Origin: Paracoccaceae bacterium
GTDB lineage: Bacteria > Pseudomonadota > Alphaproteobacteria > Rhodobacterales > Rhodobacteraceae
Length of the DNA stretch: 38,910 nucleotides
Reading direction: 5' to 3'
NCBI GenBank assembly: GCA_031374565.1
Contig: JANMGI010000129.1
Coordinates: 1 to 38,910 of the forward strand
Both the position numbers and the translations under genes were made by a program. The notes under the pieces were generated by a model, which ran no database searches, was not told the origin of the DNA, and saw only the letters and a program-made list of their open reading frames with translations. This document shows positions 3,660 to 38,758 of this stretch, piece after piece (position 1 is the stretch's first letter; each line of letters begins with the position of its first letter).

Positions 3660-4634
3660 ATGCTTGTGAACGGCAAATGGACGGCGAATTGGCAGCCGGT
3701 GCAGGCCAAGGACGACCAGGGCCGCTTTGTCCGGCAGGTGTCGTCCTTCCGCAACTGGATCACCCCGGACGGTGCGTCAGGTCCGACCGGCACCGGCGGC
3801 TTCAAGGCCAAGGCCGGTCGTTATCGCCTCTACGTCGCGCTGATCTGCCCCTGGGCCTCGCGCACGCTGATCGCCCGCAAGATCAAGGGGCTGGAGGCGC
3901 TGATCCCGATAACTGTGGTCAATCCGGTGCTGACGGACGAAGGCTGGACCTTTGGCGGCTATCCGGGTGCGGACACTGACCCGCTGCACGATGCCACTTA
4001 CATGCATGAGCTTTACACACGCGCGGACGGCGATTTCACCGGGCGGGCCACGGTCCCGGTACTTTGGGATACGCAAACCGAAACCATCGTTAGCAACGAG
4101 AGCGCAGACATAGTGCGAATGTTCGATACGGCCTTTGCTGATCTGGTTCCGGACAAGCCGTCCCTTTATCCCGCCGACCTTGCCCCGCAGATCGATGCCC
4201 GCAACGCCAAGATCTACGACAGCCTGAACAACGGGGTCTACAAGGCCGGGTTCGCCTCGTCGCAAGCCGCTTATGACGAGGCGGTGGCGGGCGTCTTCGG
4301 GATGCTCGACCGGCTGGAAGCGCTGCTGACCGAAAACTACCTCTTCGGTCAGCGCTTCACCGAAACCGACATTCGGCTGTTCGTCACCCTGATCCGCTTC
4401 GATGCGGCCTATCACGGGCTTTTCAAGACCAACCTGCGCCGGATCGCCGACTACCCCCGCCTTCAGGCCTACATGGAGCGGGTGCTGTTTTTGCCTGGCG
4501 TGGCCGAAACGGTGGACATCGGCCACATCAAGGCCGGGTATTATTCCATCAAGGCACTGAACCCACCGGGGATTGTGCCCGCGGGGCCAGAACATCTGCT
4601 GCGGCTGGTCACGGCGGCGAAAGCCGGTCAGTAA
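3660..4634 (+). CDS. yqjG: Glutathionyl-hydroquinone reductase (omega/Xi-class GST)
   Basis: CPWA active site, RATVPVLWD, NESADI, NNGVYKAGF and IRFD..Y...FK.N motifs. Confidence 0.9.
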   Translation: MLVNGKWTANWQPVQAKDDQGRFVRQVSSFRNWITPDGASGPTGTGGFKAKAGRYRLYVALICPWASRTLIARKIKGLEALIPITVVNPVLTDEGWTFGGYPGADTDPLHDATYMHELYTRADGDFTGRATVPVLWDTQTETIVSNESADIVRMFDTAFADLVPDKPSLYPADLAPQIDARNAKIYDSLNNGVYKAGFASSQAAYDEAVAGVFGMLDRLEALLTENYLFGQRFTETDIRLFVTLIRFDAAYHGLFKTNLRRIADYPRLQAYMERVLFLPGVAETVDIGHIKAGYYSIKALNPPGIVPAGPEHLLRLVTAAKAGQ

Positions 4635-7084
4635 AGGTCGACCCGGAAGGGTATTGTCGTCCAGTGGATGCGGGCGATGTCAATCAGACGCTCGACCGGA
4701 TCGGACTCCAGTGACGTATCGCCATGCTGATCGGCGATGTCCTTGTAGGCTAAGGTGCTGCCGTCCCCGAACGCGCCGTCCGGGGTGACATCGGCCCCAA
4801 GGGCCTGCAACAGCCGCTGGGATGCTTCGTCAATGGCCTTGGCCGGTAGCGCATCCAGCACCTTGCGGGCACGTTCGACCGACTTCTTGTCCCTTAGCGC
4901 CGCCGCCCGTCCGGCGCGGTAGGCGGCATCGGCCTCACTCAGACCCCCAGCGCCTTCGGTCAGGATCAGGTAGGCGGCGTAGGCCCCGGCATTGGCGTCG
5001 CCACGCTCCAGCCCCTTGTCGAACCACTCCACCGCTTGGCCTAGATCGGGCTTCTTCCCCATTGCTCCGCTGGCGATCAGCTGGCCAATGTTGCCCGGAG
5101 CGTTCGGATGCCCGCCATCTGCGGCCTTGGTGAACCAGTCCAGCGCGGTTTTCGCATCCTTCTTCTGGCCGCCAAGGCCATTCATGTAGACAAGACCCAG
5201 GTTGTTGTAGCCGTAGATGTCCCCCCGGTCAGCACTTTCGGTCAGGTAGCGCAGGCCACGTGTCGGGTCGTAGTATTCGCCGGTTTCATCCAGGTAGAAA
5301 TAGCCCAGCTCGTTCATCGCGAAGGTATGGCCGACCTCCAGCGCGCGCATCATCAGGTCATAGCCTTTCAACTTGTCCTGCTCGGTCTTGCCATGGCGCA
5401 CCAACTGGCGGCCCAGCGCGTAGAAGGCGTAGGGGTCGCCCAAATCGACACCCTCACGGTAATAGGCCAGCGCTTCGTCGGGGGCGGCCTCGGATGTGGA
5501 ACCGCCGGTCTGCTGCGCCGCGTTCAGGATGGCGTTGCCGATGGCATAAGACGCGCGGGCATGACCCATCTCGCGCGCTTTGTCCCATTCGGCCCGGGCT
5601 TCGTCATAGCGGCGCAGGGCGTTCAGGGACCGGCCCAGCTGATAGTGGAAACGCGCGTTCTGAGGGTCCCGCGAAACGGCGGCCTCGCAGGCCTGCACTG
5701 CCGCCTCGGGCTCGATTTCGTTGGCGAAACGGGCCAGACCCACGCCGTCAGGATCAAGGTGATCCGCTGCCTCGACATCGCAGGGATCGGGGGTCAGGTC
5801 GACCTGAACGACCTTCGAGGTGCCGTTCAGCTCGACCTTGAACTGGGCTTTCAGCACCGGGTCTTCACCCGCCTCGACAACCGGGCCATTGACATAGGCG
5901 AAGGCAAGGCGCGGCAGATCGTTGGCGGAAAGCGGGAACAAAGGGGCCGACTGCCCGCCCTGGTCATCCAGCAGCACAAGTCGTCCGCCACGCGGCGGTT
6001 CAGTCAGAGCGAGAGTGTCGGTCGGGGCCATGACCAGATCGCTTGCCAGGGTCACACCGATCGGGACAGCAGGTGCAAGCGGTGCGGCGATGCGGATATC
6101 GGCGGGCGCAAGATCGGTTGCCAGCGGCAGAACCTCGGCTGAGCTGGCGAAAAGGGTCAGGCCCCGGCCGACCGACGCGCCCTCAACCGGCGCGGCAACG
6201 GTCGCATCGCTGCTATTGCCGACAGAGGCGATCGAGGCATCCTCGACCATGGTGGAACTGTCCCAGGGCACCTGAACGCCCTTGGTCTCGACAAAAACGC
6301 TGCGGCGGACATCTTCAAAAACGTCGGTTACCGGGACCTTGCCCAGCGCTGCAGCTTGCAGGAAAGCGGTTGCGAAGGGGCTGTTTTCGCCTGCGCCGTC
6401 CAGTGCGACCTCTCCGGGCGAGGTAGAGAACACCAGGTAGGAATTCACCGGAGCCGCCAGCGAGGCGAAGCCGGTCTTGATCTCGCGCAGGTCGGGGCCA
6501 AGCGAATCCTGCACTTTCAGCCCGGCGAAGGGGTTGTTGCGACAGCTGTCGAGGATGACGATCTGCAACCGCGCCCGCGCGCCGACGATGGACACAAGGC
6601 TGCCGACCGACACCGCTTCGAACGGCAGATCGTCGGGCTGGTCCAGCTGGGCATCGGTCGGGATCAGAAAATTCTCGGACCCGATCTGCACGCCATGGCC
6701 AGCGTAATAGAAGAGCACTTCGGTATTGCGATCAACGTCGAACAGGATTCGCTGCATCAGCCTTTCGAAATCACGCTTCGATGCGTCCTTAAGCAGGGTG
6801 ACGTCATAGCCCTGAGTTGCCAGAAGGTCGGCCACATCCTCGGCATCGTTCCAGGCGTTCGGCAGCTTCGGGGCGTAAAGATAGCTTTCGTTGCCGATCA
6901 CCACGGCATACTTCTGACGTGGACCCGTGGCACCATCGGCCATCTTCCGGGCGCTGGCCGGGACATGGCCTTCGGGATAGGCCCCAACGGCCTCGCCAGT
7001 GTCCTGCGCCGCAGCCACCGAAAACGTCGCCATCAGGGCAAGACCTGCAAGCCCAAACGCTGCGCGTTTGGCAGGACCGGACAT
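4628..7084 (-). CDS. Exported caspase-family (peptidase C14) protease with TPR/Sel1-like repeats and a possible C-terminal peptidoglycan-binding segment
   Basis: Signal peptide ending AAA-QD; AVVIGN..Y, NDA, YYAGHG (His) and ILDSCRNNP (Cys) motifs; Sel1-like repeats in the C-terminal half; a DGAFG motif near the end. Confidence 0.9.
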   Translation of the reverse strand: MSGPAKRAAFGLAGLALMATFSVAAAQDTGEAVGAYPEGHVPASARKMADGATGPRQKYAVVIGNESYLYAPKLPNAWNDAEDVADLLATQGYDVTLLKDASKRDFERLMQRILFDVDRNTEVLFYYAGHGVQIGSENFLIPTDAQLDQPDDLPFEAVSVGSLVSIVGARARLQIVILDSCRNNPFAGLKVQDSLGPDLREIKTGFASLAAPVNSYLVFSTSPGEVALDGAGENSPFATAFLQAAALGKVPVTDVFEDVRRSVFVETKGVQVPWDSSTMVEDASIASVGNSSDATVAAPVEGASVGRGLTLFASSAEVLPLATDLAPADIRIAAPLAPAVPIGVTLASDLVMAPTDTLALTEPPRGGRLVLLDDQGGQSAPLFPLSANDLPRLAFAYVNGPVVEAGEDPVLKAQFKVELNGTSKVVQVDLTPDPCDVEAADHLDPDGVGLARFANEIEPEAAVQACEAAVSRDPQNARFHYQLGRSLNALRRYDEARAEWDKAREMGHARASYAIGNAILNAAQQTGGSTSEAAPDEALAYYREGVDLGDPYAFYALGRQLVRHGKTEQDKLKGYDLMMRALEVGHTFAMNELGYFYLDETGEYYDPTRGLRYLTESADRGDIYGYNNLGLVYMNGLGGQKKDAKTALDWFTKAADGGHPNAPGNIGQLIASGAMGKKPDLGQAVEWFDKGLERGDANAGAYAAYLILTEGAGGLSEADAAYRAGRAAALRDKKSVERARKVLDALPAKAIDEASQRLLQALGADVTPDGAFGDGSTLAYKDIADQHGDTSLESDPVERLIDIARIHWTTIPFRVDLY

Positions 7085-7308
7085 CAGTTCCAGCCGCCGC
7101 CGCCAGAGCCGCCGTCGTCAAAGACGATGACCGGCTTCTTCTTCACCACAGGAGCCGCCGCACCCGGAGCGACGGCCACCGGCTTCTTGACTGGCTTGGC
7201 CACGACCACTGGTTTTGGTTCCGGTTCCGGCGGAACAAGCTCTTCGCAGCCCGCAAGAAAACCCAGAGCAGCGACAAGAAACAATGAGCGAGACAGGTTT
7301 CTGCGCAT
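7084..7308 (-). CDS. Small lipoprotein
   Basis: Basic N-terminus, hydrophobic stretch and LAGC lipobox, then a P/K/V-rich linker and a DDGGSGGGGWN tail. Its stop overlaps the caspase ATG. Confidence 0.75.
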   Translation of the reverse strand: MRRNLSRSLFLVAALGFLAGCEELVPPEPEPKPVVVAKPVKKPVAVAPGAAAPVVKKKPVIVFDDGGSGGGGWN

Positions 7309-7476
7309 CAAGAGACCCTTTTGCTGAAGCGATGGTCAACCGCAGACTATCATGAAAATCACGCAACGAATTCAGAATATGGTGGCACGATTCGGGCTGC
7401 GCCGCAACAAAAGCAAGAGGTATGGCCGCACGCGATGCCCCAGGAATCCCTTACCCAAGCTGTAGGGCAGGACGGG

Positions 7477-8139
7477 TCAGCTTAGCGCCTGGAACTCGAC
7501 CCGGCGGTTCTGGTCGGAATCGGGATCTGCGCCTTCCAGCAGGAAGCGCTCGCCCAGACCCACAGCCTCCAGCCGCTTGGCGTCGATGCCGCAGTCGGTG
7601 ATGAAGAATCGTTGCACCTCTTCGGCCCGCAGACGGGACAGCCGTTCGTTGTAGTCGTCGGACCCGGACGCGTCAGTGTGCCCGATGATGCGGAACAGGT
7701 TGATGTCCGCAGCTTTCATCACATTGCACAGCTTTGCCAGCTTGGGCTTCTGCACCTCGTCCAGCGCGGCACTGTCGAAGGCAAACTCGATCCGGATATT
7801 GACCCCCAGATCAGCTGGCATCTTCACAAGCGTTGCCGTCTCATTCGCGGCCACGACCGTTTCCGTCGCTGCCGCGGTGTCTGCAACCGGCTCGACAGCA
7901 GAAACGTCGGTCGACGGTGCGGCATCATCCTTGGCCACTTCGGTGGAAATATCCACGTCATCCGCCTTGACCAGCGTCAGGCCCCGCGTCAAGGCAGTGT
8001 TGCCTTCGACTGCGGCCTTGTAGGCATCCCGCTGGGCCAGGAAAAGCTCAAGCAACTGATCTTCGGACAGGTCCTGTGCAAAGCTGCCGACGGGGACAAG
8101 CGTGGCACAGATCGCAAGGCTTGCAAGAATCGCGCGCAT
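7477..8139 (-). CDS. Periplasmic OmpA-family peptidoglycan-binding protein
   Basis: Signal peptide (SFA-QD), acidic linker, then F.FDSA.L, GHTDASG..YN..LS..RA and NRRVEF motifs. Confidence 0.92.
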   Translation of the reverse strand: MRAILASLAICATLVPVGSFAQDLSEDQLLELFLAQRDAYKAAVEGNTALTRGLTLVKADDVDISTEVAKDDAAPSTDVSAVEPVADTAAATETVVAANETATLVKMPADLGVNIRIEFAFDSAALDEVQKPKLAKLCNVMKAADINLFRIIGHTDASGSDDYNERLSRLRAEEVQRFFITDCGIDAKRLEAVGLGERFLLEGADPDSDQNRRVEFQALS

Positions 8140-8236: not shown

Positions 8237-8986
8237 ATGAACACGCCGATCACCGTCGTTCCGGGACTGTCGCTGCCGGTTGCCGTTGGTGCAGGGCTGA
8301 CCAACCGCGGCATGGTGCGAGACCGCAACGAAGACTCGATCCTGACCGATCCCTCGGGCACGCTTTGGGCGGTGGCCGACGGAATGGGTGGCTACGGAAA
8401 CGGCGACGTCGCCTCGGACATCGTGATCGATTGTCTGGCGAAGATCCCGGACGGGGTCGATCCCGGACCTGCGCTGGTGGCCCGGCTGAAAGAGGCGAAC
8501 GATCTGATCCTTGAACGGCAGCGCGCTCCGGGGATGGGGCGGATGGGCTCGACCGTGGTGGCGATCCTGATTTCCCGCGCTGTCGCCCATGTCGCCTGGG
8601 CCGGGGACAGCCGGGCCTATCTCTTGCGCGGCGGTCACCTGCGGCCCCTGACCCGCGATCATTCGGTGGTACAGGAAATGGTCGACCGGGGCGAACTGTC
8701 GCCGGAAGAGGCCGAAAGCCACCCGGAATCGCACATGGTGACGCGGGCGGTTGGTGGCGGGGCAGAGCTGGAGGTCGATCTGGTCAGCGTGCCGTTGGCT
8801 GTGGGCGACCGGCTTTTACTCTGCAGCGACGGGCTGACCCGCTGCGTCTACGAGCAGACGGTCGAGGCCCTGCTGAAAGAGGCAACCGATCCCGAGGATG
8901 CCTGCCAGCGCCTCTTGCGTGAGGCTCTGGACAGCGGCGCGCCCGACAATGTCTCGGCCATCACCGTCCAGATCCGGGAGGGCTGA
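8237..8986 (+). CDS. pppA: PP2C-family Ser/Thr phosphatase, T6SS-associated
   Basis: R..NED, ADGMGG, GDSRAY, LLCSDGL and DN motifs; located in the T6SS cluster with ppkA and fha. Confidence 0.88.
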   Translation: MNTPITVVPGLSLPVAVGAGLTNRGMVRDRNEDSILTDPSGTLWAVADGMGGYGNGDVASDIVIDCLAKIPDGVDPGPALVARLKEANDLILERQRAPGMGRMGSTVVAILISRAVAHVAWAGDSRAYLLRGGHLRPLTRDHSVVQEMVDRGELSPEEAESHPESHMVTRAVGGGAELEVDLVSVPLAVGDRLLLCSDGLTRCVYEQTVEALLKEATDPEDACQRLLREALDSGAPDNVSAITVQIREG

Positions 8987-8989
8987 GAG

Positions 8990-9877
8990 GTGCAGCGGAC
9001 AAACCTTGTCGCCCCGATCATCGTCGCCATCGGGGTCATCATAGCCGCCGTCGCCTTTGCCATGGTGACGACCCTGCTGGAATCTGCCGACAGCGGGGCC
9101 GACCTGCGCCTGACCCGCCTGGAAGAAGCGTTTGATTCCGAAGCCGCGCAGCGCTCAGCGCTGGAGACCGAAATCGTCGCGCTGAAGGCAGACCTGGCAC
9201 AGATGCGCGACGACATGAGCCTTCTGGCCAACCGCGCGCCAGTCGCACAGACCCCGGACATCGCAGCCCCGACCGACAGCGAAGTCCTGACCGGCCCGGA
9301 AGACGAACAGCATCAGCCCGAGACTCAAGCGCTGACCGAGCAGATGAAGGCAGCGCGGGACCGATTCAACAAGGGCGTGACCCAGCCGCGCAACAAGACC
9401 ATGCTGGCGCTTCTGGGCCGCCCGCGTGAGGACCTTGGCACTGACTGCCGGGGGATCACCAACCCCAGGCTCAAGGCCCTGGTCGAAACCCGCACGATCG
9501 GCCCGATCAAGGCCACGATGCTGAAACCCGCGCTGGACAGCCTTGAACGGATCTTCGCCAAACTGAAGGCGGATGAGCCTGACATCTATGCCAAGCTGGG
9601 CACGGCAGGGGCGCTTTGCGTGCGGCTGATCCGGGGCTCGAACTCCTCGGTCTCGAACCATTCCTTCGGCACGGCGATCGACATCACGTTGCAAGGTGAG
9701 CTGGACCCCTTCGCAGATGGCACCATGCAAATCGGTCTCGTGATCCTGGCCGAACACTTCAACGAGGAAGGCTGGTACTGGGGCGGGGGCTACAACCGCG
9801 AAGACGGGATGCATTTCGAGGTGGGCGAGGAAACGCTTCGCAAATGGGTCGAGGACGGGCTGATTCCTTCGCAATGA
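8990..9877 (+). CDS. Membrane-anchored M15-family zinc peptidoglycan peptidase (TagX-like role)
   Basis: N-terminal TM helix, coiled coil, then SNHSFGTAID (H-x6-D) and DGMHFE motifs. Confidence 0.85.
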   Translation: MQRTNLVAPIIVAIGVIIAAVAFAMVTTLLESADSGADLRLTRLEEAFDSEAAQRSALETEIVALKADLAQMRDDMSLLANRAPVAQTPDIAAPTDSEVLTGPEDEQHQPETQALTEQMKAARDRFNKGVTQPRNKTMLALLGRPREDLGTDCRGITNPRLKALVETRTIGPIKATMLKPALDSLERIFAKLKADEPDIYAKLGTAGALCVRLIRGSNSSVSNHSFGTAIDITLQGELDPFADGTMQIGLVILAEHFNEEGWYWGGGYNREDGMHFEVGEETLRKWVEDGLIPSQ

Positions 9878-12351
9878 GTGCCGATCCGAACAGCCCGCGC
9901 ACTGTGATGCCGCCCCGGCGCGGCGGGCGGACCTCCGACCCGGACGTTTATGAACAGGCAGCGGCACCGGTCCTGCGAATGGCAGAGGAACTGGCGACAG
10001 TTAGGGGCGTGGGCGCACAAAAGCTGGTGCAGCAGGCCGCCGATGCGCTGGACCGTTTCAGCGCCGACTTGCAGCGGGCGGGTGTCGTGCCCTCGACAGT
10101 GCAGCCGGCGCGCTATGCTTTGGGTTGGCTTCTGGACCAGAAGGCCCGGGCCAACCGCGCGGTGGATGTGGCGCTGTGGGGGGCGGGGGCGCATCGGCTG
10201 ATCTTCGACGGACGCGACATGGCGCCTTCCACGTTGCGCGACTTCATCCGCAAAGCTGTCGATGCGGGGCCGGATTTCAACGGCGTGCGCGTGTTCATGG
10301 AGCGCCGCCAGGCCGAGCTTGAGGGCAGCCGAACGCGGTTTGACCGCAACCTGGGCGCGGGCTGGACCGGGATCACGCTGGTCTTGATACTGGCCTTCGT
10401 CGCCCTGCTGGCGGGATGGGCCGGTTTCGTGGAATGGCGCTTCCACCGCGACCTGACCCGACTTTTCGACGCCGAGGCGCTGTCCATCGGACTGGATCGC
10501 GACGCGGTGATGCCCGACTTGCCCCAGCGTCTGACCCGGTTGGGAGAGGCCGCCGATGGCGTGGCACGGGCTGCGGACAAGGCTCCTATCCGGCTTTTCG
10601 CGGGGGCATTCGGCTTTGACGCCGCAGCACACGCCGATGAAGTTTACGAAGCAGCCGTGCAACAGCATGTGCCGGGCGAAATGGCGCGGGCCGTTGATGC
10701 AGCGCTTGCGGCCGAAGGGGAGAGTCTGCCGCTCTACGACACACTGCGGGCCTGGTCGATCCTTTCGGGCCAGGCGGAGTGGGCGCCCGACTATCTTGCG
10801 GGTTGGCTTGCGGATCGCGCCGGGGCGATGCCCGATCTGCAACCCCTTGTCCCCCACCTTGCCCGCCTGCGCCTGCCGCCCGGCCCCCTGCCACCACCGG
10901 ATGCCGAGCTTTTGACCCAGGCCCGCACCTTTGCCGCCGAGGCCACCGAAGGAGCGCGGGCCTATCTGGAGCTTCTTCGGTCTAACGGTGCGGCGGACAT
11001 TGCCCCCTGGGTGCCGGACGTGGCTGTGCCGGGCCTTGCGGTCGTGATGCAGCGTCGCTCCGGCATTGCGGTGAACACTTCGATTGCCGGGCTTTTCACC
11101 CAAGATGGCTGGGATTTCGCCCGCAAGATCGGGGCCGGGCTCGCCGTGCAGACCGCGCGGGACGAAGCCACCCGACTGTTCGACAAACCGCCCGCCACAG
11201 CAAACGACTCACCGGATCAGGTGCTGGATATCCTGCAGCGTGAAACCCTGTCGCGCTGGAAGGCCTTCCTTGCCGACCTTCAGGTGCAGCCCTTTGCAGA
11301 CCCCGCGCAGGCGGTCCTGATCTCGGGCCGCCTTGCGGTGCCGGATTCGCCCCTCGCCGCCCTGCTTCCCGAGGTCTGGGCGCAGGTCGGCGGACTTGAC
11401 CGCGACCGCCCGCATGCCATGCAGCTGCGCATCGCCTCGGACTTTGCCGCGCTGATCCAGTACTCCGAAGATGGCCGGATGTCCGAAATTGCCGGTCTTT
11501 TCGCCAGCCTGAACGTTGCTCTTGGTGCAATGGACAAGGACGAACCGCGTGGTTTGCAGCGGTTGATGTCGGCCAAAGCGCGGGGCGCGACGCTGACCGC
11601 CTTGCGCACCGCCCCACCGATGGTCGTGCAGATCGTCGAGGACGTTCTGGCCCAGACCAGTGCCGCCCAGGCCGACCCCTTGTCGAACCCGCTGACCAAG
11701 GCCTGGCAGTCCGAAGTGCTGTCCTTGTGCAAAGGTACGACCGAAGGCCGCTATCCCTTTGCCGAAGGGTCTGAGGCAAGCCTGGCCGAAGTCGCCGGTC
11801 TTCTGGCCCCCGGCGGTGCCATCGACCGCTTCTACCGCACCCGGGCCGAGCCCTATATCGACACCTCCAGCAACCCATGGCGTTGGAAGCCGGACGCCCG
11901 TTTTGCGGGACTTGACCCGAAAAGCGCCGAGTTCCTGCAACGCACCCAGGCCATCGCCGCCGGTCTTGCGGGGCAAGGCACTACCCTCAATCTTGCCGCC
12001 CTTGCTGAACGCGGCAAAACTTTTGTCGCCATCGGCGGCGCCGGGGGGCCGGTGGAGACCAGTCTGGAGCCGCTGACGCTGACCTGGCCCGGTGCCAATC
12101 CCGCCGCCGGGGCCGAAGTCCGCTTCACCACGTCAGAAGGCAGCGCCAGCCTGGTCCAGCCGGGCGAATGGGGACTGTTCCGCATTCTTGACGGCGTCCG
12201 GCTGCGCGAACGCGACGGCGGCAAACGCTTTCTGGTCGATCTGCGGTCCGGCGGGGCACGGCTATTTGTGGAAGTGCAGTTCCAGACCGAGGCCAACCCG
12301 CTGTCACGCTGGCGGCTGCTGAAAGGTCTGGCCTGCCCCACCGCACTTTGA
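9874..12351 (+). CDS. TssL(DotU)-like / TssM(ImcF) periplasmic-domain fusion protein
   Basis: The N-terminal region aligns by eye with DotU (AAAPVL..., ARYAL..LLD). One TM follows, then similarity to the TssM periplasmic part (LYDTLRAW, GLFTQDGW, TEGRYPFA, PWRWK, LTWPG, GEWGLFR, CPTAL). There is no Walker A motif. The ATG overlaps the upstream stop. Confidence 0.85.
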   Translation: MSADPNSPRTVMPPRRGGRTSDPDVYEQAAAPVLRMAEELATVRGVGAQKLVQQAADALDRFSADLQRAGVVPSTVQPARYALGWLLDQKARANRAVDVALWGAGAHRLIFDGRDMAPSTLRDFIRKAVDAGPDFNGVRVFMERRQAELEGSRTRFDRNLGAGWTGITLVLILAFVALLAGWAGFVEWRFHRDLTRLFDAEALSIGLDRDAVMPDLPQRLTRLGEAADGVARAADKAPIRLFAGAFGFDAAAHADEVYEAAVQQHVPGEMARAVDAALAAEGESLPLYDTLRAWSILSGQAEWAPDYLAGWLADRAGAMPDLQPLVPHLARLRLPPGPLPPPDAELLTQARTFAAEATEGARAYLELLRSNGAADIAPWVPDVAVPGLAVVMQRRSGIAVNTSIAGLFTQDGWDFARKIGAGLAVQTARDEATRLFDKPPATANDSPDQVLDILQRETLSRWKAFLADLQVQPFADPAQAVLISGRLAVPDSPLAALLPEVWAQVGGLDRDRPHAMQLRIASDFAALIQYSEDGRMSEIAGLFASLNVALGAMDKDEPRGLQRLMSAKARGATLTALRTAPPMVVQIVEDVLAQTSAAQADPLSNPLTKAWQSEVLSLCKGTTEGRYPFAEGSEASLAEVAGLLAPGGAIDRFYRTRAEPYIDTSSNPWRWKPDARFAGLDPKSAEFLQRTQAIAAGLAGQGTTLNLAALAERGKTFVAIGGAGGPVETSLEPLTLTWPGANPAAGAEVRFTTSEGSASLVQPGEWGLFRILDGVRLRERDGGKRFLVDLRSGGARLFVEVQFQTEANPLSRWRLLKGLACPTAL

Positions 12352-21614: not shown

Positions 21615-22073
21615 TCACATCGGGGTCAGCTTGATCCCGCTGGCCGTTACGTCAAGCGCGAACGTCACGGCGTCTGTCGGCGAGACCGAGGACTTGGCGC
21701 GGAACTGTTTGCCACCTGGATCACGGAAGCCGGCAACAATGGCGATCAAGGCCGTTGACGGGTCAAGCGTGACAGTCTTGGTCGCCTTGCCGCCGGGGGC
21801 AAGCGCGATTGTGTCGGCCTTCACCAGATCGCCGCCAAGCGCCTTGGCGGGCGACTGCAAGGCAAAGAAGTCGGCCCCATCAAAGGCCCCCGCCCCGCGC
21901 AGTTGCAGGACCTGCAACGTCATTGGCCGGTCAGCACCATCCGGGCCGGGGTTCATGCCGGCAGCCCCTTGCGCCACCAGCGTCACCGATCCGGGGCCGG
22001 ATGGGGCGCAGGACACCAATAGAACGGCGCTGCTGCCAATCAGAAAGGCACGGCGTGGAAACTCATGTGTCAT
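21615..22073 (-). CDS. tssJ: T6SS lipoprotein TssJ
   Basis: RRAFL..LLVSC signal/lipobox; MNPGPDG..RP..L...QL, F..ADFF.L and A.FRD motifs. Confidence 0.9.
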   Translation of the reverse strand: MTHEFPRRAFLIGSSAVLLVSCAPSGPGSVTLVAQGAAGMNPGPDGADRPMTLQVLQLRGAGAFDGADFFALQSPAKALGGDLVKADTIALAPGGKATKTVTLDPSTALIAIVAGFRDPGGKQFRAKSSVSPTDAVTFALDVTASGIKLTPM

Positions 22074-23547
22074 CGGTCTTCTCCCTGTTGCCTTCATAAG
22101 CGTCGCGAAAATCCGCACCCACTTCGCCCAGGAACCGGTCCTCGGCGGCGCGGGCGATGTCCTTGTAGCGGTCAGTATAGGCCTTCCACAGCTTTGCGTT
22201 GCGGCCCCCGGACAGAAGGCTGCCCAGCATCCCCAGTTCCTCCAGATCCTTCTCGACCGCCGACGGGTCGAATCGGTCGATCATCCGGCGCAGCGCGGAC
22301 TGGACCCCGACCCATGACCGCATCTGGTGGTCGGCCAGATCGCGGAACGCCCCGTTGATCGCATCGTCAGGATTCAGGTAGCCGGGCCCACGCGCAGCGA
22401 TCATCGCGGCCAGCGCCTCGTTGGTCGAGGCGAGGAATTTCAGCGGATTGACATCAGTGTTGCTGATTACCGTCTGCGCCACGCGGGCGTTCTGCTTTTC
22501 CTTGGCCCGGGTGCGCAACATCAGCATCAGACCCTCGACCAGCAGGCGGAAGCGCTGGCCCATCGCCTCCATCTCGGCCAACGGGTCCTGCGCTGCGACC
22601 GGATCAAGGCCAAGGCCGCGGTAGAAGGCGTCGCGCAGGGCCGCATCCGGAACGGCCGGGACTGGCTGAGTGGACCGGGGCTCAGGCGCGGGTGTAGGAG
22701 CGGCTTCACCGCGCTGACGGGTGCGGTTGTCCTCGTCATGGATGACGACCTGGGGCGCGGGTTCCGGCTTCAGACCTGGCGGCTCCGGAGGGAGGGGGGC
22801 CGGGGCAGCAGGGTCAGGGTCGGGCGCGGCCACCGGTGGGGGCATAGCCCACCAGTCATCGGATGCAGGTGCGCCAACCGGGGCAGCGGGCTTGGGTGGT
22901 GCGGACGCATCGGCTTTGCCCGGTCCATCGAAGAACCCGCCAAATCCGAAATCGTCAGGGCGGGGGGCGATAGGTTCGGGCACACTGCCAGCAGGGCGGG
23001 CCGAAACCGAATGCTCCAGCGTGAAGGGGTCGTCGAACAGCGGTGGCGGTGGGGCGCGGTCCGGGGTCGCGTCATAGCGCCGGGCGTCTGTAGCGCCCTG
23101 ATCAAAGGGCTGCGGCAGGCCGTCCGGGCGGCGCACAGGCGGCGGCGGCGTCACCGGTTGCGAGAAGAAGTCATCATGCGTCATCTGTCGCTGCGTCGGG
23201 GCCTGCGTGCGAGGCCCAGCAACTGGCACCGCGGCCTCGACCTCGACCCGGATCACCGTGTCCCCCAGCCGCAGCCGCATCCCGGATTCAAGACGCGCCG
23301 CATTGCCCGGCCCCAGCGGCTGGTCTTTGCCGTCGATGTAAAGCCCGCCCCGGCTGGCGTCGGTGACGGTGAACTGCCCCGCCTCGCCGGTGATCACGCA
23401 ATGCTTGCGCGAGACATACATGTCGGGGTCGTTCAACTGCCACGAACATTCGGCCCCGCGCCCAATCGAGAACTCTCCTCCCGGATGACGCATTTCGCGC
23501 CGGTCCTGCGGATGCGTGCTGTGCTCGATGACAAGGCGAAGGGTCAT
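22063..23547 (-). CDS. tagH: T6SS FHA-domain protein TagH/Fha
   Basis: FHA motifs IGRG..C and VSRKH, a Pro-rich linker, C-terminal NPLKF and W..Y...Y motifs. Confidence 0.93.
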   Translation of the reverse strand: MTLRLVIEHSTHPQDRREMRHPGGEFSIGRGAECSWQLNDPDMYVSRKHCVITGEAGQFTVTDASRGGLYIDGKDQPLGPGNAARLESGMRLRLGDTVIRVEVEAAVPVAGPRTQAPTQRQMTHDDFFSQPVTPPPPVRRPDGLPQPFDQGATDARRYDATPDRAPPPPLFDDPFTLEHSVSARPAGSVPEPIAPRPDDFGFGGFFDGPGKADASAPPKPAAPVGAPASDDWWAMPPPVAAPDPDPAAPAPLPPEPPGLKPEPAPQVVIHDEDNRTRQRGEAAPTPAPEPRSTQPVPAVPDAALRDAFYRGLGLDPVAAQDPLAEMEAMGQRFRLLVEGLMLMLRTRAKEKQNARVAQTVISNTDVNPLKFLASTNEALAAMIAARGPGYLNPDDAINGAFRDLADHQMRSWVGVQSALRRMIDRFDPSAVEKDLEELGMLGSLLSGGRNAKLWKAYTDRYKDIARAAEDRFLGEVGADFRDAYEGNREKTDDT

Positions 23548-24572
23548 GCGGCCTCCACCTGCGCAACGCGGTAAAGCCGCAGATCGTCGGCATCCGCCTG
23601 CCGCTTCGGCGACAGCCAGGCTGTGCGCCCCAACTGGCAATGGCCAAGCTGGGCGTCGGGGATTTCTTCGCGCGCCATGACCAGTCGCAGGTTGAACTCC
23701 ATTTCGCGCCCCATGGCGTGCCTGATCGCATGGCGAAGGCGCGCGGTCAGATCGGGGTCAGCGAGAAACTGCGTGAACCGGGAAAAGGTCAAAGGCCCGA
23801 CGCGCAGTTCCACCAGCGTCTGCCTCTGGAAGCTGCGGGAACCAACCACTGCCGAACGACCAAGCTGAGCATAGGCCTGCCCAAGACGTGATTGCAAGCG
23901 TTCGGGGATCTGCGTCCATGTGCCGATGAATTCCACCAGACCGACCGGGACCTCCAAGACATCGCCCAGATAGGCGGTCAGCCGTTCAACACTGGTAACC
24001 TGCCGCCCAAGCGAGGTCGCGTGCCGCAGCTTCAGCCGGGTCTGCGCATCCGGCCCCTTCGGCTTGGTCCCCGGCAGGGCGACCCCCGCCAGCGTCTCGA
24101 CCAACGCCTGCACCCGGCCCGCCGCCCCATGCTCGATCTGGACTTCGGGGCGGGCATCGGCCCAGGCCCTCCAGTACAGCGACATCATCCGGTGCTGAAG
24201 GAGGTTGCAGAAATCCAGGAATGTCGTGTCCGACGCCGCATCGCTGCCATCGGTGAACCAGCGGTCCGACATCCGCCCCATGACCCAGCGGGTGATGTGC
24301 AACGGCAGCGCGCCCTCGGGTCCAAGCAGGCCCAGCACCTCGACATCCACCTTCGCGGGGGGGCCGGGGGTGAACCCGGCAACATCGCGTGTCCCGAAGG
24401 TTAGCCGCGCGCGCTGGCCCAGACGTGCCGGTTCGCGCGACGGCCCGCCCGACCGGCCAAACCGCGCGCCGTCGCGCTCCAGCCTGCGCAAAAGCTCGAA
24501 GAAGCCCATGGTTTCGGGAGCGACCAGATCTCCGGTCAGATCAGGGCGCGGTTGCCCGGCGTCATCGGCCAC
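23544..24572 (-). CDS. tssG: Baseplate subunit TssG
   Basis: FFELLRRLE, GLLGPEGALPLH.T, F.D..N...HR...L..RAW and LGRTAWL motifs. Confidence 0.95.
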   Translation of the reverse strand: MADDAGQPRPDLTGDLVAPETMGFFELLRRLERDGARFGRSGGPSREPARLGQRARLTFGTRDVAGFTPGPPAKVDVEVLGLLGPEGALPLHITRWVMGRMSDRWFTDGSDAASDTTFLDFCNLLQHRMMSLYWRAWADARPEVQIEHGAAGRVQALVETLAGVALPGTKPKGPDAQTRLKLRHATSLGRQVTSVERLTAYLGDVLEVPVGLVEFIGTWTQIPERLQSRLGQAYAQLGRSAVVGSRSFQRQTLVELRVGPLTFSRFTQFLADPDLTARLRHAIRHAMGREMEFNLRLVMAREEIPDAQLGHCQLGRTAWLSPKRQADADDLRLYRVAQVEAA

Positions 24573-31047: not shown

Positions 31048-33159
31048 TCAAGGTCTTGCATCGATGACCCTGGTTGCGACGGACACGATGTTCCCGGGGT
31101 CTTTCGCGATCACCCCTTGCAGTTCATCCGCAAGACCTCCGACCGATAACGTTTCTGGCAGGCGGGTGCCGAAAAGCGAGGTTTTCGACAGAATCGCAAT
31201 GATCTCGGATTTGCCGAAATTGCCCGCGTCGACCTTGATCGAGTAAACCCCGTTGCCGGCCTTCATGTCACTCAGGCTGTACAGAACGCGGACCCGGCGG
31301 ACGCCGTCGGCAACGGTCCCAATGTTCTCGATTGCGTGCTCGGCCTGCGTCTCGTTCGGCAGCAGGCTGAAAACCTGGTTGGTGTTGTCGACCACCAGCA
31401 CCCACAACGACAGGCCAGTCAGTTCGGGAGGCACCAGCACTTCGACCACGGGATTGTCACCTGCATGGAAGATGCCGGACAGGTTCACCTCGCCTGTCGC
31501 GCCATCTCCAAACCAGATGACCGCGTCGCCCGCCCCGACCGGCGGCAGCACCGTGCGGACGGCGCAGAGGTCCCTGTTTAGAATGGTCACATCCAGCCGC
31601 ACCGAACGGTCGCCAACCATCGTCTCAATCGCCGCTTGCAGCGCATCTCGGGCCTCGACCGACGGCAGCGCGCCGGTGACCACGATGGTATCGCCCATGT
31701 CGTAAAGCTGTAACGGTCCCTTGTCGGGCGAAAGCAGCCCGCAGATGGCAAAGGGCGCAAGCGCGTCCAGCACCGCCTGCCCCTGCAACTTGCGCGGGCC
31801 GACCTTCAGGCCAATGTCGATCTGCATCCCCGTGCGCTTTGCCCAATCTTGTAGGGCCGCGCGCTTCTGATCCAACTGCTCCCGCGTGGTGGCGATGCCA
31901 TCGAAGGCGACAGTTTTGTCCGTGACCGACAGCGACCACTCTGCCAGCCCCTGCATCAGGCCAAGAAGGTCGGCAAGGTTCTCGACCCACTGCGCGTCGG
32001 GCACACCCTGGGCCAGGGGCAGCGCATCCTTCGGCGGCGTTGCCCCCGTGGCGGCAGTGAAAGCCAGACCCAGGCGCTGCGCTGCTTCCGCGTCAGGGGC
32101 GTTTCCGGACAGCGCCGCGCTGTCCGGCCCGAAACTGGCCGTAAGCATATAGGGAGAAACACTGGGGATCGGGTTCAGATAGGGGTCCAGAAGCCCCGCA
32201 TACCAAGACCCGCCGCCGAACAGCGAAAGCAGCAGTACCGCCAGCAGCGCAAAAGTGCCGCCGCGACCCTTGGTCATGGTGCCCGTGTCAACCGGAGGCA
32301 AAGTCTGCCGCTTGCCCCGCCCCGACACCGGCTGCAACGCCTGATTCAGGCGGGAAACCACCGCCTCGGCACTAACGGGCCGGTCGGACAGCGCCGGGGC
32401 GGACAGCCAGTCCACCAGCCCCTTCAGGGGTTCCTGTACGCCCTCCGTATCCAGCTTCGACTGCTTGCGCCGCACAATCTCACCCGGCGTCGATCCGCTG
32501 AACGGAACCTGCCCCCGGAACGCCGCCAGCAGCGTCGCCCCCAGCGCATAAAGGTCCGACCGTCGCTCTGCCCGCCCCTCCAGCTGCTCCGGCGCGGCGT
32601 ACTCATACTTTCCCGCGAACTCATTCCCGACAATCGTCCGTGCGCCCGCCGTCGTGTCCTTGGCGATGCCGAAGTCGATGATCGTCGCCTTCTCCGGCGC
32701 GCCATCCCGCAACACCACATTGTCGGGCGACAGGTCCCGATGCACGATCCCCCGCGCATGGGCCACCACCAACCCCTCGGCCACCCGATGCGCAATGATC
32801 ATCAATTCGCGCGGTTCCATCCGGCGGCGCATCATCACGTCGTTCATCGATGGCCCGTCGATGAAATCCATCACCAGAAACACATGCCCCTGGTCGGTCC
32901 GCGAACATTCGGTGTAGCGCACCACCGCGTCGTTCAGCACGTCGCGCATCTGCTCTTCGCGCTTCATCAGCTCGATATAGTCGTCGTTTCCGGAAAACTG
33001 CGCGTTCAGCGCCTTGATCGCGACGATCCGCCCCGAGATCTGGTTGCGCGCTCGGTAAACCTCGCCCGTGCCGCCCCGCCCCAGCACACCCTCGATCTCG
33101 TAGGTGTGGTTCAGCACCTGACCCTGACGGAAGATGTCACCCGGCAGACGGTCGATCAT
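31048..33159 (-). CDS. ppkA: Membrane Ser/Thr kinase PpkA with BON-like and DUF4384-like periplasmic domains
   Basis: GRGGTGEV, VAIK, HRDLSPDN, IDFG and APE kinase motifs, one TM, then C-terminal VVD..NQV..L.PN and FG.SEIIAILS. Start reset to the ATG at 33159. Confidence 0.9.
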   Translation of the reverse strand: MIDRLPGDIFRQGQVLNHTYEIEGVLGRGGTGEVYRARNQISGRIVAIKALNAQFSGNDDYIELMKREEQMRDVLNDAVVRYTECSRTDQGHVFLVMDFIDGPSMNDVMMRRRMEPRELMIIAHRVAEGLVVAHARGIVHRDLSPDNVVLRDGAPEKATIIDFGIAKDTTAGARTIVGNEFAGKYEYAAPEQLEGRAERRSDLYALGATLLAAFRGQVPFSGSTPGEIVRRKQSKLDTEGVQEPLKGLVDWLSAPALSDRPVSAEAVVSRLNQALQPVSGRGKRQTLPPVDTGTMTKGRGGTFALLAVLLLSLFGGGSWYAGLLDPYLNPIPSVSPYMLTASFGPDSAALSGNAPDAEAAQRLGLAFTAATGATPPKDALPLAQGVPDAQWVENLADLLGLMQGLAEWSLSVTDKTVAFDGIATTREQLDQKRAALQDWAKRTGMQIDIGLKVGPRKLQGQAVLDALAPFAICGLLSPDKGPLQLYDMGDTIVVTGALPSVEARDALQAAIETMVGDRSVRLDVTILNRDLCAVRTVLPPVGAGDAVIWFGDGATGEVNLSGIFHAGDNPVVEVLVPPELTGLSLWVLVVDNTNQVFSLLPNETQAEHAIENIGTVADGVRRVRVLYSLSDMKAGNGVYSIKVDAGNFGKSEIIAILSKTSLFGTRLPETLSVGGLADELQGVIAKDPGNIVSVATRVIDARP

Positions 33160-36035: not shown

Positions 36036-36443
36036 ATGCATGACGGACCTTTTCCTGGCCTGCACGGCGTCTACCGTGCCGATATCATCGAGATCGGTCC
36101 CGATGGTCGCGCCAAGGTTATGATCCCGGCCGTCTTCGGCGATGCCCCGTCCTTTGCCCAGTCTCTTGTCCCCGTAACCCCAGCTTCCGTTGGCCGCCCG
36201 GTCGCCGTGACGATGATGGGCGACCAGCCCCTGATCCTTGGCCTGATCCAGCCTTTGCAGCCAGAGGTGAAGGCCGACGGCGAAACGCTGGTCCTGGAAG
36301 CCCGCCAGGAAATGATCCTGCGCTGTGGTGCCGCTTCCATCACGATGACGGCGGATGGCCGGGTGACGATCCGCGGAACCCAGGTCCTCAGCCGGTCCGA
36401 GGGGGCCAACCGGGTGCAAGGGGCCACCGTCCAACTGAACTGA
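36036..36443 (+). CDS. DUF6484-like protein (mini spike-tip homologue)
   Basis: P.I.G.IQP and C-terminal LEA..E..LRCG.ASIT.TADGRV.IRG..V.SRS.G.NRVQG..VQLN. Confidence 0.8.
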   Translation: MHDGPFPGLHGVYRADIIEIGPDGRAKVMIPAVFGDAPSFAQSLVPVTPASVGRPVAVTMMGDQPLILGLIQPLQPEVKADGETLVLEARQEMILRCGAASITMTADGRVTIRGTQVLSRSEGANRVQGATVQLN

Positions 36444-36450
36444 ACCGTCC

Positions 36451-36966
36451 ATGCAGTCTGACCCGCCAGTGATCGGATACTTCGGCAAACTGCCCTCGGC
36501 AGCGAGCTTCGTCGGCGCATCTCTTCCGTCCGACTTCGTTGATCGCTGGGACAACTGGTATGCCGCCGCCACCAGGTCCAAGCCGCCGGGACCGATCACC
36601 TATGACGAACCCATCTGGCGCTTCATTGCTGCCGAGGGTCTGTTCGGGCCCCTCGCCACAGCCGGGGTCTGGCGCCACAGCCAGGATGCCCGACGGCAAC
36701 GCTACCCGTTCGTGATCGCGTCCCTCGGTCGCTCCCTTTCCGTCGATGACCCCTGGTTCGACGCCGCCGAAGCGCTCCTGACCGCAGCCGTCGAGGGTGA
36801 TCACGCTGACCTTGACCGCCGACTGTCGCGCCTTCCGGCACCGAGAGCCGCCCCACCCGCCACGACGGCAATCCTGATGTGGCGCGACGACTGGGAGGTG
36901 CATGAGCTGAGCTTCCCCTCCGGCCGTGCCTTCGCCGCCTTCGGCCTGCCGCAGGGGGGTGACTGA
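36451..36966 (+). CDS. tagF: TagF (copy 2, divergent)
   Basis: GYFGKLP..SFV, WD.W, WRF, S.D...RYP and W..AAE motifs. Confidence 0.85.
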   Translation: MQSDPPVIGYFGKLPSAASFVGASLPSDFVDRWDNWYAAATRSKPPGPITYDEPIWRFIAAEGLFGPLATAGVWRHSQDARRQRYPFVIASLGRSLSVDDPWFDAAEALLTAAVEGDHADLDRRLSRLPAPRAAPPATTAILMWRDDWEVHELSFPSGRAFAAFGLPQGGD

Positions 36967-37349
36967 TGGGCTTGACCGTCTACGCCGAGAACATGGGCTT
37001 TTTCCACAAAGGCAGCGGCGGCAAGGGCATCGCCCCCGGCGACGTCTGCATGACCCCTCCGCCCCCTCCCGCCGGTCCGATCCCGGTGCCTTACGTCAAC
37101 ATCGCCCAGGCATCCGACCTCACGAAGGGCTCAAAGACCGTCAAGATCGACGGCGAGCCCACCGCGCTGGAGGACGTGTCCGAGGTCTCGACCAGCACGG
37201 GGAACGAGCCAGGGAGCCAACCGCCAAAGGGGGTGGTGAGCTCGACCAACAAGGGCAAGGCCAGTTTCACGATGTGGTCCTTCACCGTGAAGGTCGAGGG
37301 CAAGGGCGTCTGCCGCCATGGCGACCCGATGTTTCAGAACGAGGCGTGA
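36966..37349 (+). CDS. DUF4150 PAAR-like protein
   Basis: DVC.TP..P.P.PY.N.A, STG.E.G and S.TVK.EG..V.R..D motifs. Confidence 0.92.
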   Translation: MGLTVYAENMGFFHKGSGGKGIAPGDVCMTPPPPPAGPIPVPYVNIAQASDLTKGSKTVKIDGEPTALEDVSEVSTSTGNEPGSQPPKGVVSSTNKGKASFTMWSFTVKVEGKGVCRHGDPMFQNEA

Positions 37350-37826
37350 ATGGTGCTCAATTGTACCGCTCCAGGCGCATTAGTTAAGCTGAAGAACCAG
37401 CCGGGATTCAAGCTTGGCAAATGCACGGAACCCTATAATAGCGACATACACCGCCCTGACATTCTCCAGCCGCAGGAAAACGAAGTTCATGGAAAGAAGT
37501 GCTGGGAATGCTCCAGGCAGAACCGGCGCGGGAAACGCGCCAAGACCCCCGGTGGCAAATGGATGCGCGAGAAAGACTACTTCAAACCCAACAGCCGCGG
37601 CGAAACACCCTTTGAAGAACGCGACCGCAAGCGGATGACCCCGGACCACCAGCCGCCACTCAATCGCGCTTGGGATCTCGGCGGTTGCAACATGCAACCC
37701 TCGCCGGACGCTTTTAAGAAAATGATGCAGAAGGCCGAGATGGTCAGGGCGCATTGCCGGGCGCACTCCTGCAGCCAAGGTACTAAAGTAAAGAAGGCTT
37801 CCGCCGCCGCTCGGTCGAAGATTTAG
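37350..37826 (+). CDS. Putative His-Me finger (HNH-like) nuclease toxin, in frame with DUF4150
   Basis: Very basic protein with CWEC, PDHQPP and HCRAHS..QG motifs; sits between the PAAR gene and immunity-like genes. Confidence 0.6.
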   Translation: MVLNCTAPGALVKLKNQPGFKLGKCTEPYNSDIHRPDILQPQENEVHGKKCWECSRQNRRGKRAKTPGGKWMREKDYFKPNSRGETPFEERDRKRMTPDHQPPLNRAWDLGGCNMQPSPDAFKKMMQKAEMVRAHCRAHSCSQGTKVKKASAAARSKI

Positions 37827-37835
37827 GAAAAGAAA

Positions 37836-38267
37836 ATGGACCCGCGCTACGAGGAGATACAAATCCGATATCTTGCCGAATTGCGCGGCATCCTTCCGCT
37901 TGTCATGGCTTGGTGGACGGAAAGGGCAGTGCAAACACCAGATGAAATTGACGACCAGCCTGCGGGGAATGATTTCGAGCGCCGTTGGCCAGCGGGGCCA
38001 ACCGGTCACCCACTCGTACTAAACGTCTTTCGCCGCTATTTTCTTCAGATTGATCGCCTGAATCTTGAAGTTGATTTCCAGGAGGACCTGAGCCGCCAAC
38101 CTACCGAGGATGACTGGGGCGTGGAAGTCTACGAAGTAGTCCCGACGCAGCTTCCCATAGATGTACTGGTCGACGATATTCAGTCGGTCGCACCGGACGT
38201 CTATCGCCTGGTGAAGGGTATGGTCTTCATACCGATAGGGCTTTCACCCGAAGAAGAGTTGTGTTGA
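37836..38267 (+). CDS. Putative immunity protein 1
   Basis: Acidic 143-aa ORF with an AGGA RBS, directly after the toxin; AT-richer codons. Confidence 0.6.
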   Translation: MDPRYEEIQIRYLAELRGILPLVMAWWTERAVQTPDEIDDQPAGNDFERRWPAGPTGHPLVLNVFRRYFLQIDRLNLEVDFQEDLSRQPTEDDWGVEVYEVVPTQLPIDVLVDDIQSVAPDVYRLVKGMVFIPIGLSPEEELC

Positions 38268-38758
38268 TGGCGCTGGAGACAATTCACAGCGTTCAGCGTG
38301 GTATCCTACGTCTCCTAGGGGCGCCAGAAGATGTTAGTGCGGGCCTTCCGCATCAAGGCGTTGCTCGGCTACGCAACGAGGCAACACACGAACACGGAAA
38401 GCTCTATGAAGAGTATGTTGCCGATTTTGCACACGCTTACGAGATTGGCGCGAATTGGTGGGCCGCCTGCGTAGACGCTTGCCTAGAAGAAGCAGGTGAT
38501 CGGCGGGGTGCAATAGACGCCGCTTTTGATCGCCGCTTAGCGGGGCCAGCTTCCGCACCAGAAGTCGTATGGTTTTTCCGTACTTACTGGATGGCCTTTG
38601 ACGAAGTGAACAAGAGTTGCGCGCCCGAAGACCGGGTGCCGCCGCAACATGCGATGCTGCAATGGCTCATAGATGACGGCCATGATGACTACATTCAGCT
38701 TCTGACCTGTATGCCCTACTGGCCCATCGGGCTCGACGAGAACGGGAACTGGTGTTGA
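38267..38758 (+). CDS. Putative immunity protein 2, a paralogue of the upstream gene
   Basis: TGATG overlap with the upstream stop; shares WW, F.RR..AGP, FR.Y, PIGL and the terminal Cys with the upstream ORF. Confidence 0.6.
   Translation: MALETIHSVQRGILRLLGAPEDVSAGLPHQGVARLRNEATHEHGKLYEEYVADFAHAYEIGANWWAACVDACLEEAGDRRGAIDAAFDRRLAGPASAPEVVWFFRTYWMAFDEVNKSCAPEDRVPPQHAMLQWLIDDGHDDYIQLLTCMPYWPIGLDENGNWC

Follow-up and report, generated by a model that had tools for sequence, protein, structure and literature searches.

What signal might reach a type VI secretion system (T6SS) from the periplasm, and could that signal be a proteolytic cut? The question is raised by a 38,910-nt stretch of Paracoccaceae bacterium DNA (contig JANMGI010000129.1 of assembly GCA_031374565.1; here called the window), which holds a complete-looking T6SS cluster encoding PpkA, PppA, Fha/TagH and TagF, and whose nearest named relatives belong to Tabrizicola. 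On its minus strand, a secreted paracaspase-like protease of 818 aa (4628..7084) and TagN, an OmpA protein of 220 aa (7477..8139), are encoded with only a 75-codon open reading frame (ORF) for a predicted lipoprotein separating them, and the two genes are presumably co-transcribed. A preliminary description had proposed that the protease processes itself and cuts the OmpA protein at a pentapeptide common to both, RGLTL, exposing a new N-terminus that could act as a tethered ligand. Our analysis slightly favours an overall reading in which the protease cuts both its own linker and TagN at a conserved arginine motif, and processed TagN switches the kinase PpkA.

The match itself is exact: RGLTL is encoded on the minus strand at 6152-6166, where its arginine is Arg307 of the protease, and at 7972-7986, where it is Arg52 of TagN (Thr51-Arg52 motif, 7972..7989, located by motif scans). 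The two proteins are, as had been stated, otherwise unrelated, with no common domain (C14, TPR and Sel1 in the protease; OmpA in TagN). Among random like-sized protein pairs of the source genome, 722 of 3000 (24%) shared an exact 5-mer and 55 of 3000 shared one with arginine first, and RGLTL occurs nine times among the 3709 called genes; by the standard of this one genome, the match is weak and not beyond chance. Such common sharing of 5-mers favours an explanation in which another periplasmic protease, or separate structural roles, account for the motif, and the link with the caspase is a by-product of shared T6SS and Tad-pilus loci. We consider this explanation very improbable. The significance of the shared motif comes from its conservation and not from the RGLTL match alone.

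The conserved motif is (T/S)-R-(G/S/T)-hydrophobic. In an alignment of the protease with 74 homologues (46-79% identity), Arg307 was kept in 74 of the 75 sequences and was followed by G, T or S and then by L, I or V; linker positions 286-306 were variable in the same alignment. The motif was present in the linker of 119 of 120 homologues and in 79 of 86 distinct protease linkers at the loci, against 19.6 expected from shuffles. The preliminary description had given the motif as VEG-x4-5-RGLTL and had looked to conservation of RG(L/I)xL in orthologues: alignments of both proteins bore out the arginine core, in the broader form given above, and the VEG half did not hold, being found in 1 of 149 diverse TagN representatives and in only 1 of 120 protease homologues, for which reason VEG was excluded from the motif (in close TagN relatives it is retained, as is the entire region). 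The remark that few other basic residues lie nearby applied to the protease linker, where the next arginine is at position 331, and less so to TagN, which has R37, K41, K58 and K70.

TagN consists of a predicted signal peptide (judged by eye, as was that of the protease), a short helix, the motif, a low-complexity linker and a C-terminal OmpA peptidoglycan-binding domain identified by Pfam. Gene order, with pppA, tagY and tagM alongside, and a 248-aa orthologue in Sinorhizobium americanum identify it as the TagN of the rhizobial group-3 T6SS (PMC11872809). Close homologues were dropped as a test of conservation because the whole region is conserved among them. Of 150 representatives listed at the 50%-cluster level, 149 were scanned, and removal of 18 multidomain or partial ones left 131. 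R-[GST]-hydrophobic was found before the OmpA domain in 122 of these 131 against 22.4 expected, the T/S-R form in 104 against 6.3 expected, and two or more copies of the motif in 37; these counts lean high, to the detriment of our reading, because the profiles used to collect the homologues contained the motif columns. In the Sinorhizobium TagN, proline precedes the arginine, and a caspase gene lies at the end of that T6SS cluster.

A third family carries the same motif. Many orthologous proteases adjoin Tad/Flp pilus genes, outside T6SS loci, and there the gene slot of tagN, upstream of the protease gene, is taken by a gene for an unrelated secreted two-cysteine protein of ~100 aa, found at all 16 Tad loci, at none of the 16 TagN loci and at 12 of 54 other loci. 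Its 120 listed homologues all have an arginine in their variable middle, preceded by Thr or Ser in 117 (Thr in 111) and followed by a small and then a mostly hydrophobic residue, counts that lean high for the same reason as those of TagN. In at least three Tad-type loci, a lipoprotein-like ORF separates the genes for the small protein and the protease, as in the window. The small family (L050:9139-9456; homologues P0243-P0362) also has two invariant-like cysteines and a highly conserved C-terminal helix; it had no Pfam match, and no atlas match above 0.81.

Occurrence of one arginine motif in three unrelated families encoded in adjacent gene slots, the protease included, argues against a mere by-product of shared loci, and so does the co-occurrence of the genes. 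In a sample of 300 genomes of the bacterial family (≥90% complete, one per genus), TagN was present in 51, and a C14 protease was found in all 51 of these genomes versus 47 of the 249 without TagN (98 of 300 overall), counts in which kin are not independent, a circumstance that favours the by-product. Among the listed caspase matches in the 51 TagN genomes (20 matches being unlisted), 38 genomes had one no more than 40 kb from tagN on the same contig, and in 22 the distance was at most 5 kb.

The protease comprises a predicted signal peptide, a C14 domain at residues 58-280, a disordered linker, a beta-sandwich at 330-431 and a TPR/Sel1 solenoid. All ten matches of a PDB sequence search were MALT1, and Foldseek matched the AF2 model to the MALT1 caspase domain with a TM(target) of 0.78. 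The model (mean pLDDT 82) contains the caspase core, the beta-sandwich and a helical solenoid, and leaves residues 288-315, Arg307 among them, unmodelled (pLDDT <50). On the minus strand, the catalytic His130 (6695..6697) aligned to the YYAGHG of MALT1, Asp179-Ser-Cys181 (6542..6550), which comprises an S1 aspartate and the catalytic cysteine, to MALT1 Asp462 and Cys464, and the S1 acidic residue Asp80 (6845..6847) to Asp365. H130, C181, D80, D179 and D229 were all invariant across 42 homologues. Asp229 (6398..6400) is likely the third S1 acid and probably corresponds to MALT1 Glu500, an equivalence drawn from position because the MALT1 alignment stops short of it. In MALT1, Asp365, Asp462 and Glu500 are the S1 acids that set arginine specificity, according to the accessible part of PMC4357240. 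The acidic S1 residues and D-S-C element reported earlier were found intact, and the metacaspase or orthocaspase label gave way to the paracaspase type (C14B, MALT1-type), which the Pfam C14 match, the His/Cys dyad in a caspase fold, the acidic pocket and the greater nearness to MALT1 than to metacaspases in the PDB sequence matches all indicate. We predict a periplasmic, arginine-specific, MALT1-like cysteine protease.

MALT1 (MEROPS C14B), the nearest protein of solved structure, resembles the window protease in sequence and fold, dyad, acidic S1 pocket and a beta-sandwich after the catalytic domain, although the likeness of this beta-sandwich to the MALT1 Ig3 domain is one of position and not of demonstrated homology, and the window protease is bacterial, predicted to be periplasmic, and has a Sel1/TPR tail. 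The available portions of the literature give the MALT1 cleavage motif as L-X-S/P-R-G, describe self-cleavage (PMC11165066) and report a preference for a small P2 residue (PMC3304489); the S/P-R|G site resembles the motif described here. Two further paracaspases are encoded in the source genome, one of 501 aa (C195:1677-3812) and one of ~1100 aa (C412:3317-6622); the 501-aa protein has Sel1-like repeats, adjoins a conserved secreted protein, and is without the loop arginine common in its orthologues.

From these comparisons it is probable that the motif is the cleavage site of the protease. The motif might instead be an uncleaved docking strand or pseudo-substrate, lying in the active site or on the Sel1/Ig domain and serving as inhibitor or tether. 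A conserved arginine suits the acidic S1 pocket whether cut or uncut, the tandem copies in 37 of the TagN representatives could add avidity, and a similar arginine motif is kept in catalytically altered caspase-DUF4384 proteins; the small residue past the arginine (G/S/T/A), however, is what one expects at a cleavable site, and the MALT1 motif has one; the sites also lie in variable, Gly-rich segments. We regard docking without cleavage as improbable, if less so than a by-product of shared loci. Self-processing and cleavage of TagN after arginine are likely, being well supported by the comparative evidence of the intact dyad, the acidic S1 pocket, the MALT1-like fold and motif, the disordered linker, the third family and the co-occurrence in 51 of 51 genomes.

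What such cleavage would control is suggested by the position of tagN. Loci of 20 kb each were fetched for 40 of the 51 TagN genomes, and TagN was called in 38; at 29 of the 38, some of which had no T6SS core genes in the fetched 20 kb, ppkA immediately follows tagN in the same orientation, and tagN is tied to ppkA more closely than the protease gene is. This pairing suggests that cleavage feeds the threonine phosphorylation pathway, whose kinase, phosphatase, FHA protein and TagF are all encoded in the cluster. The candidate receiver is PpkA, a Ser/Thr kinase with a periplasmic BON-like and DUF4384-like region (31048..33159, minus strand). Its C-terminal Ig-like beta-sandwich (31051..31542, minus strand) is tentatively called DUF4384-like: PF14326 (DUF4384) matched 17 of 33 orthologues, not the window's own copy; the atlas lead was DUF4384 at 0.93, the family being on 14% of that cluster; and the model (pLDDT 90) had Ig-fold matches at Z 7-9 in VIA-align, to generic Ig folds only. 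A Foldseek search of the PpkA ectodomain against PDB gave no significant match. In most of the loci L184-L220, tagY, which encodes an M15 peptidase, is divergent from tagN-ppkA, and the caspase gene often adjoins tagY, an arrangement that suggests a peptidoglycan-linked sensing unit.

In the reading that we favour, the protease would cut after the arginine of (T/S)-R|(G/S/T)-hydrophobic both in itself and in the wall-binding TagN. Self-cleavage at Arg307 (motif at 6152..6166, a predicted site placed by conservation and low pLDDT) would part the catalytic domain from the beta-sandwich/Sel1 half, presumably regulatory, and cleavage at Arg52 would remove the N-terminal helix of TagN, whose new N-terminus would then sit at the tip of a long flexible linker anchored to the peptidoglycan. 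In turn, PpkA, the membrane kinase in control of T6SS assembly, would be switched by processed TagN, which would hence govern Fha phosphorylation and fill the role of TagQR in Pseudomonas or RtkS in Serratia; the protease would have a different small secreted substrate at Tad-pilus loci. Control of PpkA, and so of Fha phosphorylation, by this cleavage is a tentative proposal, to which we give somewhat less than even weight. That the new N-terminus of TagN is itself the ligand of the DUF4384-like domain of PpkA is plausible from the tagN-ppkA adjacency, the conserved hydrophobic prime side and the DUF4384-like Ig end of PpkA, but is speculative and, in our estimate, unlikely. Protease-activated receptors offer a parallel for a tethered ligand made by a protease. 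A predicted complex between the Ig-like domain of PpkA and residues 53-84 of TagN, modelled without controls, scored 0.22 at best against a mark of 0.32 and was counted neither way.

Other caspases near these modules bear on a third alternative, that the motif is cut for maturation, release or turnover, so as to activate the protease or to free or discard the N-terminal piece of TagN, and that DUF4384 binds the protease as an adaptor, with no peptide ligand. An arginine motif just past the position of the catalytic cysteine, a feature in favour of the reading above, recurs in several caspase-DUF4384 fusions and in many of the ~500-aa paracaspases encoded near tagN. In the ~500-aa paracaspases, the T-R precedes Gly-Gly and no hydrophobic strand; a G-D-T-R-S-M match in these proteins was set aside, as it seems to begin a helix of Sel1 type and not to lie in a linker. 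Such an adaptor role also agrees with the caspase-DUF4384 fusions that are common at Tad loci, with pairs of a caspase and a TonB-like DUF4384 protein that exist without the motif, and with the presence of a caspase in 49 of 58 DUF4384 genomes. It accounts less well for the hydrophobic residue two places past the arginine, common to TagN, the protease linker and the small Tad-locus protein, or for the bond of tagN with ppkA described above. We consider it a lesser possibility, less likely than control of PpkA by cleavage.

Extending the favoured reading further, one may imagine an alphaproteobacterial periplasmic caspase cascade, in which para- and metacaspases cut a common T-R|G-hydrophobic site in themselves, in TagN and in the 100-aa protein, and DUF4384 reads the new N-terminus, through PpkA to set off the T6SS and through analogous modules in the case of Tad pili. 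We hold this extension to be unlikely, much as we do the ligand proposal on which it builds. The Tad loci encode metacaspase-DUF4384 and pseudo-caspase-DUF4384 fusions, an OmpA protein and an FGE-sulfatase-domain protein; the PDB sequence matches of the Tad-locus caspase-DUF4384 protein were GSU0716 and metacaspases, unlike those of the MALT1-matching window protease. At loci L221-L227 (and at L050 and a subset of L063-L081), the Tad/Flp cluster has the small T-R protein, the lipoprotein and the paracaspase on one flank, and the FGE-sulfatase-domain protein, pseudo-caspase-DUF4384, OmpA protein, metacaspase-DUF4384 and prepilin peptidase on the other, a gene content that parallels the T6SS module.

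Several observations weigh against cleavage of TagN as the switch of PpkA. In the window itself, tagN and ppkA are 23 kb apart, and 13 of the 51 TagN genomes had no caspase on the same contig among the matches listed. The P4 leucine of MALT1 sites is mostly unmatched in the motif, TagN having Gly or Gln there. Seven of the 86 locus linkers, more distant paracaspases among them, were without the motif, and a linker motif was missing from many neighbouring paracaspases, several of them next to tagN. A further 12 caspase/DUF4384 neighbourhoods, with TonB/ExbBD-like genes judged from sequence, were mostly without the motif, and DUF4384 may therefore bind the protease rather than a peptide. At OmpA loci outside the bacterial family sampled here, a caspase domain was found within ~10 kb in only 6 of 17, and the T-R motif in 7 of 17, four of which had a nearby caspase domain; the other three favour the by-product explanation (five of the six caspases had T-R in the loop after the catalytic cysteine). 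In a quick tree built from 58 proteases, two label changes sufficed for the rows linked to TagN and the small-protein-linked rows fell in one clade, so that the swap of partners may have been a single event. Lastly, five Tad-locus genomes that keep the protease motif gave no TagN-level OmpA match and no PpkA-ectodomain match with the queries used (genome completeness being unknown and the ectodomain search having no positive control); readers other than PpkA therefore probably exist.

Between tagN and the protease gene, the 75-codon ORF (7084..7311, minus strand) encodes a small Pro-rich predicted lipoprotein without a match in Pfam or NCBIfam; it is Pro/Val/Lys-rich with an Asp/Gly-rich tail containing Trp, like the tails in ORFs upstream of orthologous proteases. 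Beyond tagN, the plus strand encodes a PppA-like PP2C phosphatase (8237..8986; domain searches), the M15 peptidase TagY (8990..9877) and TagM, with DotU and IcmF domains (9844..12351), the latter two assigned by Pfam and named after PMC11872809. Fha/TagH (22063..23640, minus strand; domain searches) is the expected target of PpkA, going by the accessible part of PMC10482370. At 36036-38758 on the plus strand lie DUF6484, a second TagF-like gene and a PAAR-like gene, followed by ORFs without Pfam matches, candidates for an effector gene and a pair of immunity-like genes. No TagR (FGE-sulfatase) domain or TagST transporter was found among the 30 ORFs scanned in the window. Elsewhere, near T6SS clusters (L260-L271), a ~480-aa paracaspase adjoins ExbB/ExbD-like genes and a TonB-like Ala/Pro-rich protein whose final module looks like the BON-like and DUF4384 end of PpkA. 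A two-partner secretion pair (ShlB/FhaC and a haemagglutinin-like protein) adjoins a ~640-aa paracaspase near tagN (named in L258:15703-24347; assigned by family arrangement in L181, L187 and L197), and the exported haemagglutinin-like protein might be a further substrate.

The separate parts of this system are of known kinds; the motif and the proposed cleavage of TagN appear to be new. In the accessible text of PMC10482370 and PMC13713981, PpkA is activated by a periplasmic partner, TagQRST in Pseudomonas aeruginosa and RtkS in Serratia, and these inputs are described as binding partners, not as proteolysis; the window shares PpkA, PppA, Fha and TagF with those systems, but its PpkA ends in BON-like and DUF4384-like domains. 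The TagN/TagM/TagY set of the Sinorhizobium fredii USDA257 group-3 T6SS has the same genes in the same order, with wall anchoring as the sole role proposed for TagN and the word 'caspase' absent from the main text (PMC11872809). The closest working model, by analogy, is Arabidopsis metacaspase 4, which, as far as the available part of the preprint goes, self-cleaves and cuts PROPEP1 after Arg69 to yield a ligand for the receptor PEPR1 in the damage response (bioRxiv 10.1101/2020.03.09.983940): there too a clan CD protease makes a receptor ligand, but that enzyme is a Ca2+-activated plant metacaspase, the peptide is freed, and substrate and receptor are non-homologous. DUF4384 has been noted on alphaproteobacterial pseudo-orthocaspases and kinases, with no function given in the portion seen of PMC6426788, and caspases have been treated as toxin-processing enzymes in that seen of PMC3482391. 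Our literature search, which lay outside most subscription journals and supplements, did not turn up an earlier account of the motif or of cleavage in TagN, or a substrate of these secreted bacterial paracaspases.

The input to PpkA is known in only a few species, and a 2026 review of T6SS accessory factors (PMC13584744), whose TagN proteins are those of Acinetobacter and Burkholderia, calls the role of TagN elusive, with no mention of 'caspase', 'protease' or 'DUF4384' in its accessible text. The motif pinpoints the exact bonds, Arg52-Gly53 and Arg307-Gly308, and predicts point mutants; it also connects three orphan families and would tie a MALT1-like protease to the control of a contact-dependent weapon that 51 of the 300 sampled genomes of this bacterial family, and also rhizobia, carry. 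If the wider cascade were true, it would be a bacterial counterpart of the protease-activated receptor and of damage signalling through Pep1 in plants, and a function could be assigned to DUF4384 and to this TagN. For these bacteria, cleavage of TagN would provide an undescribed proteolytic switch for the T6SS.

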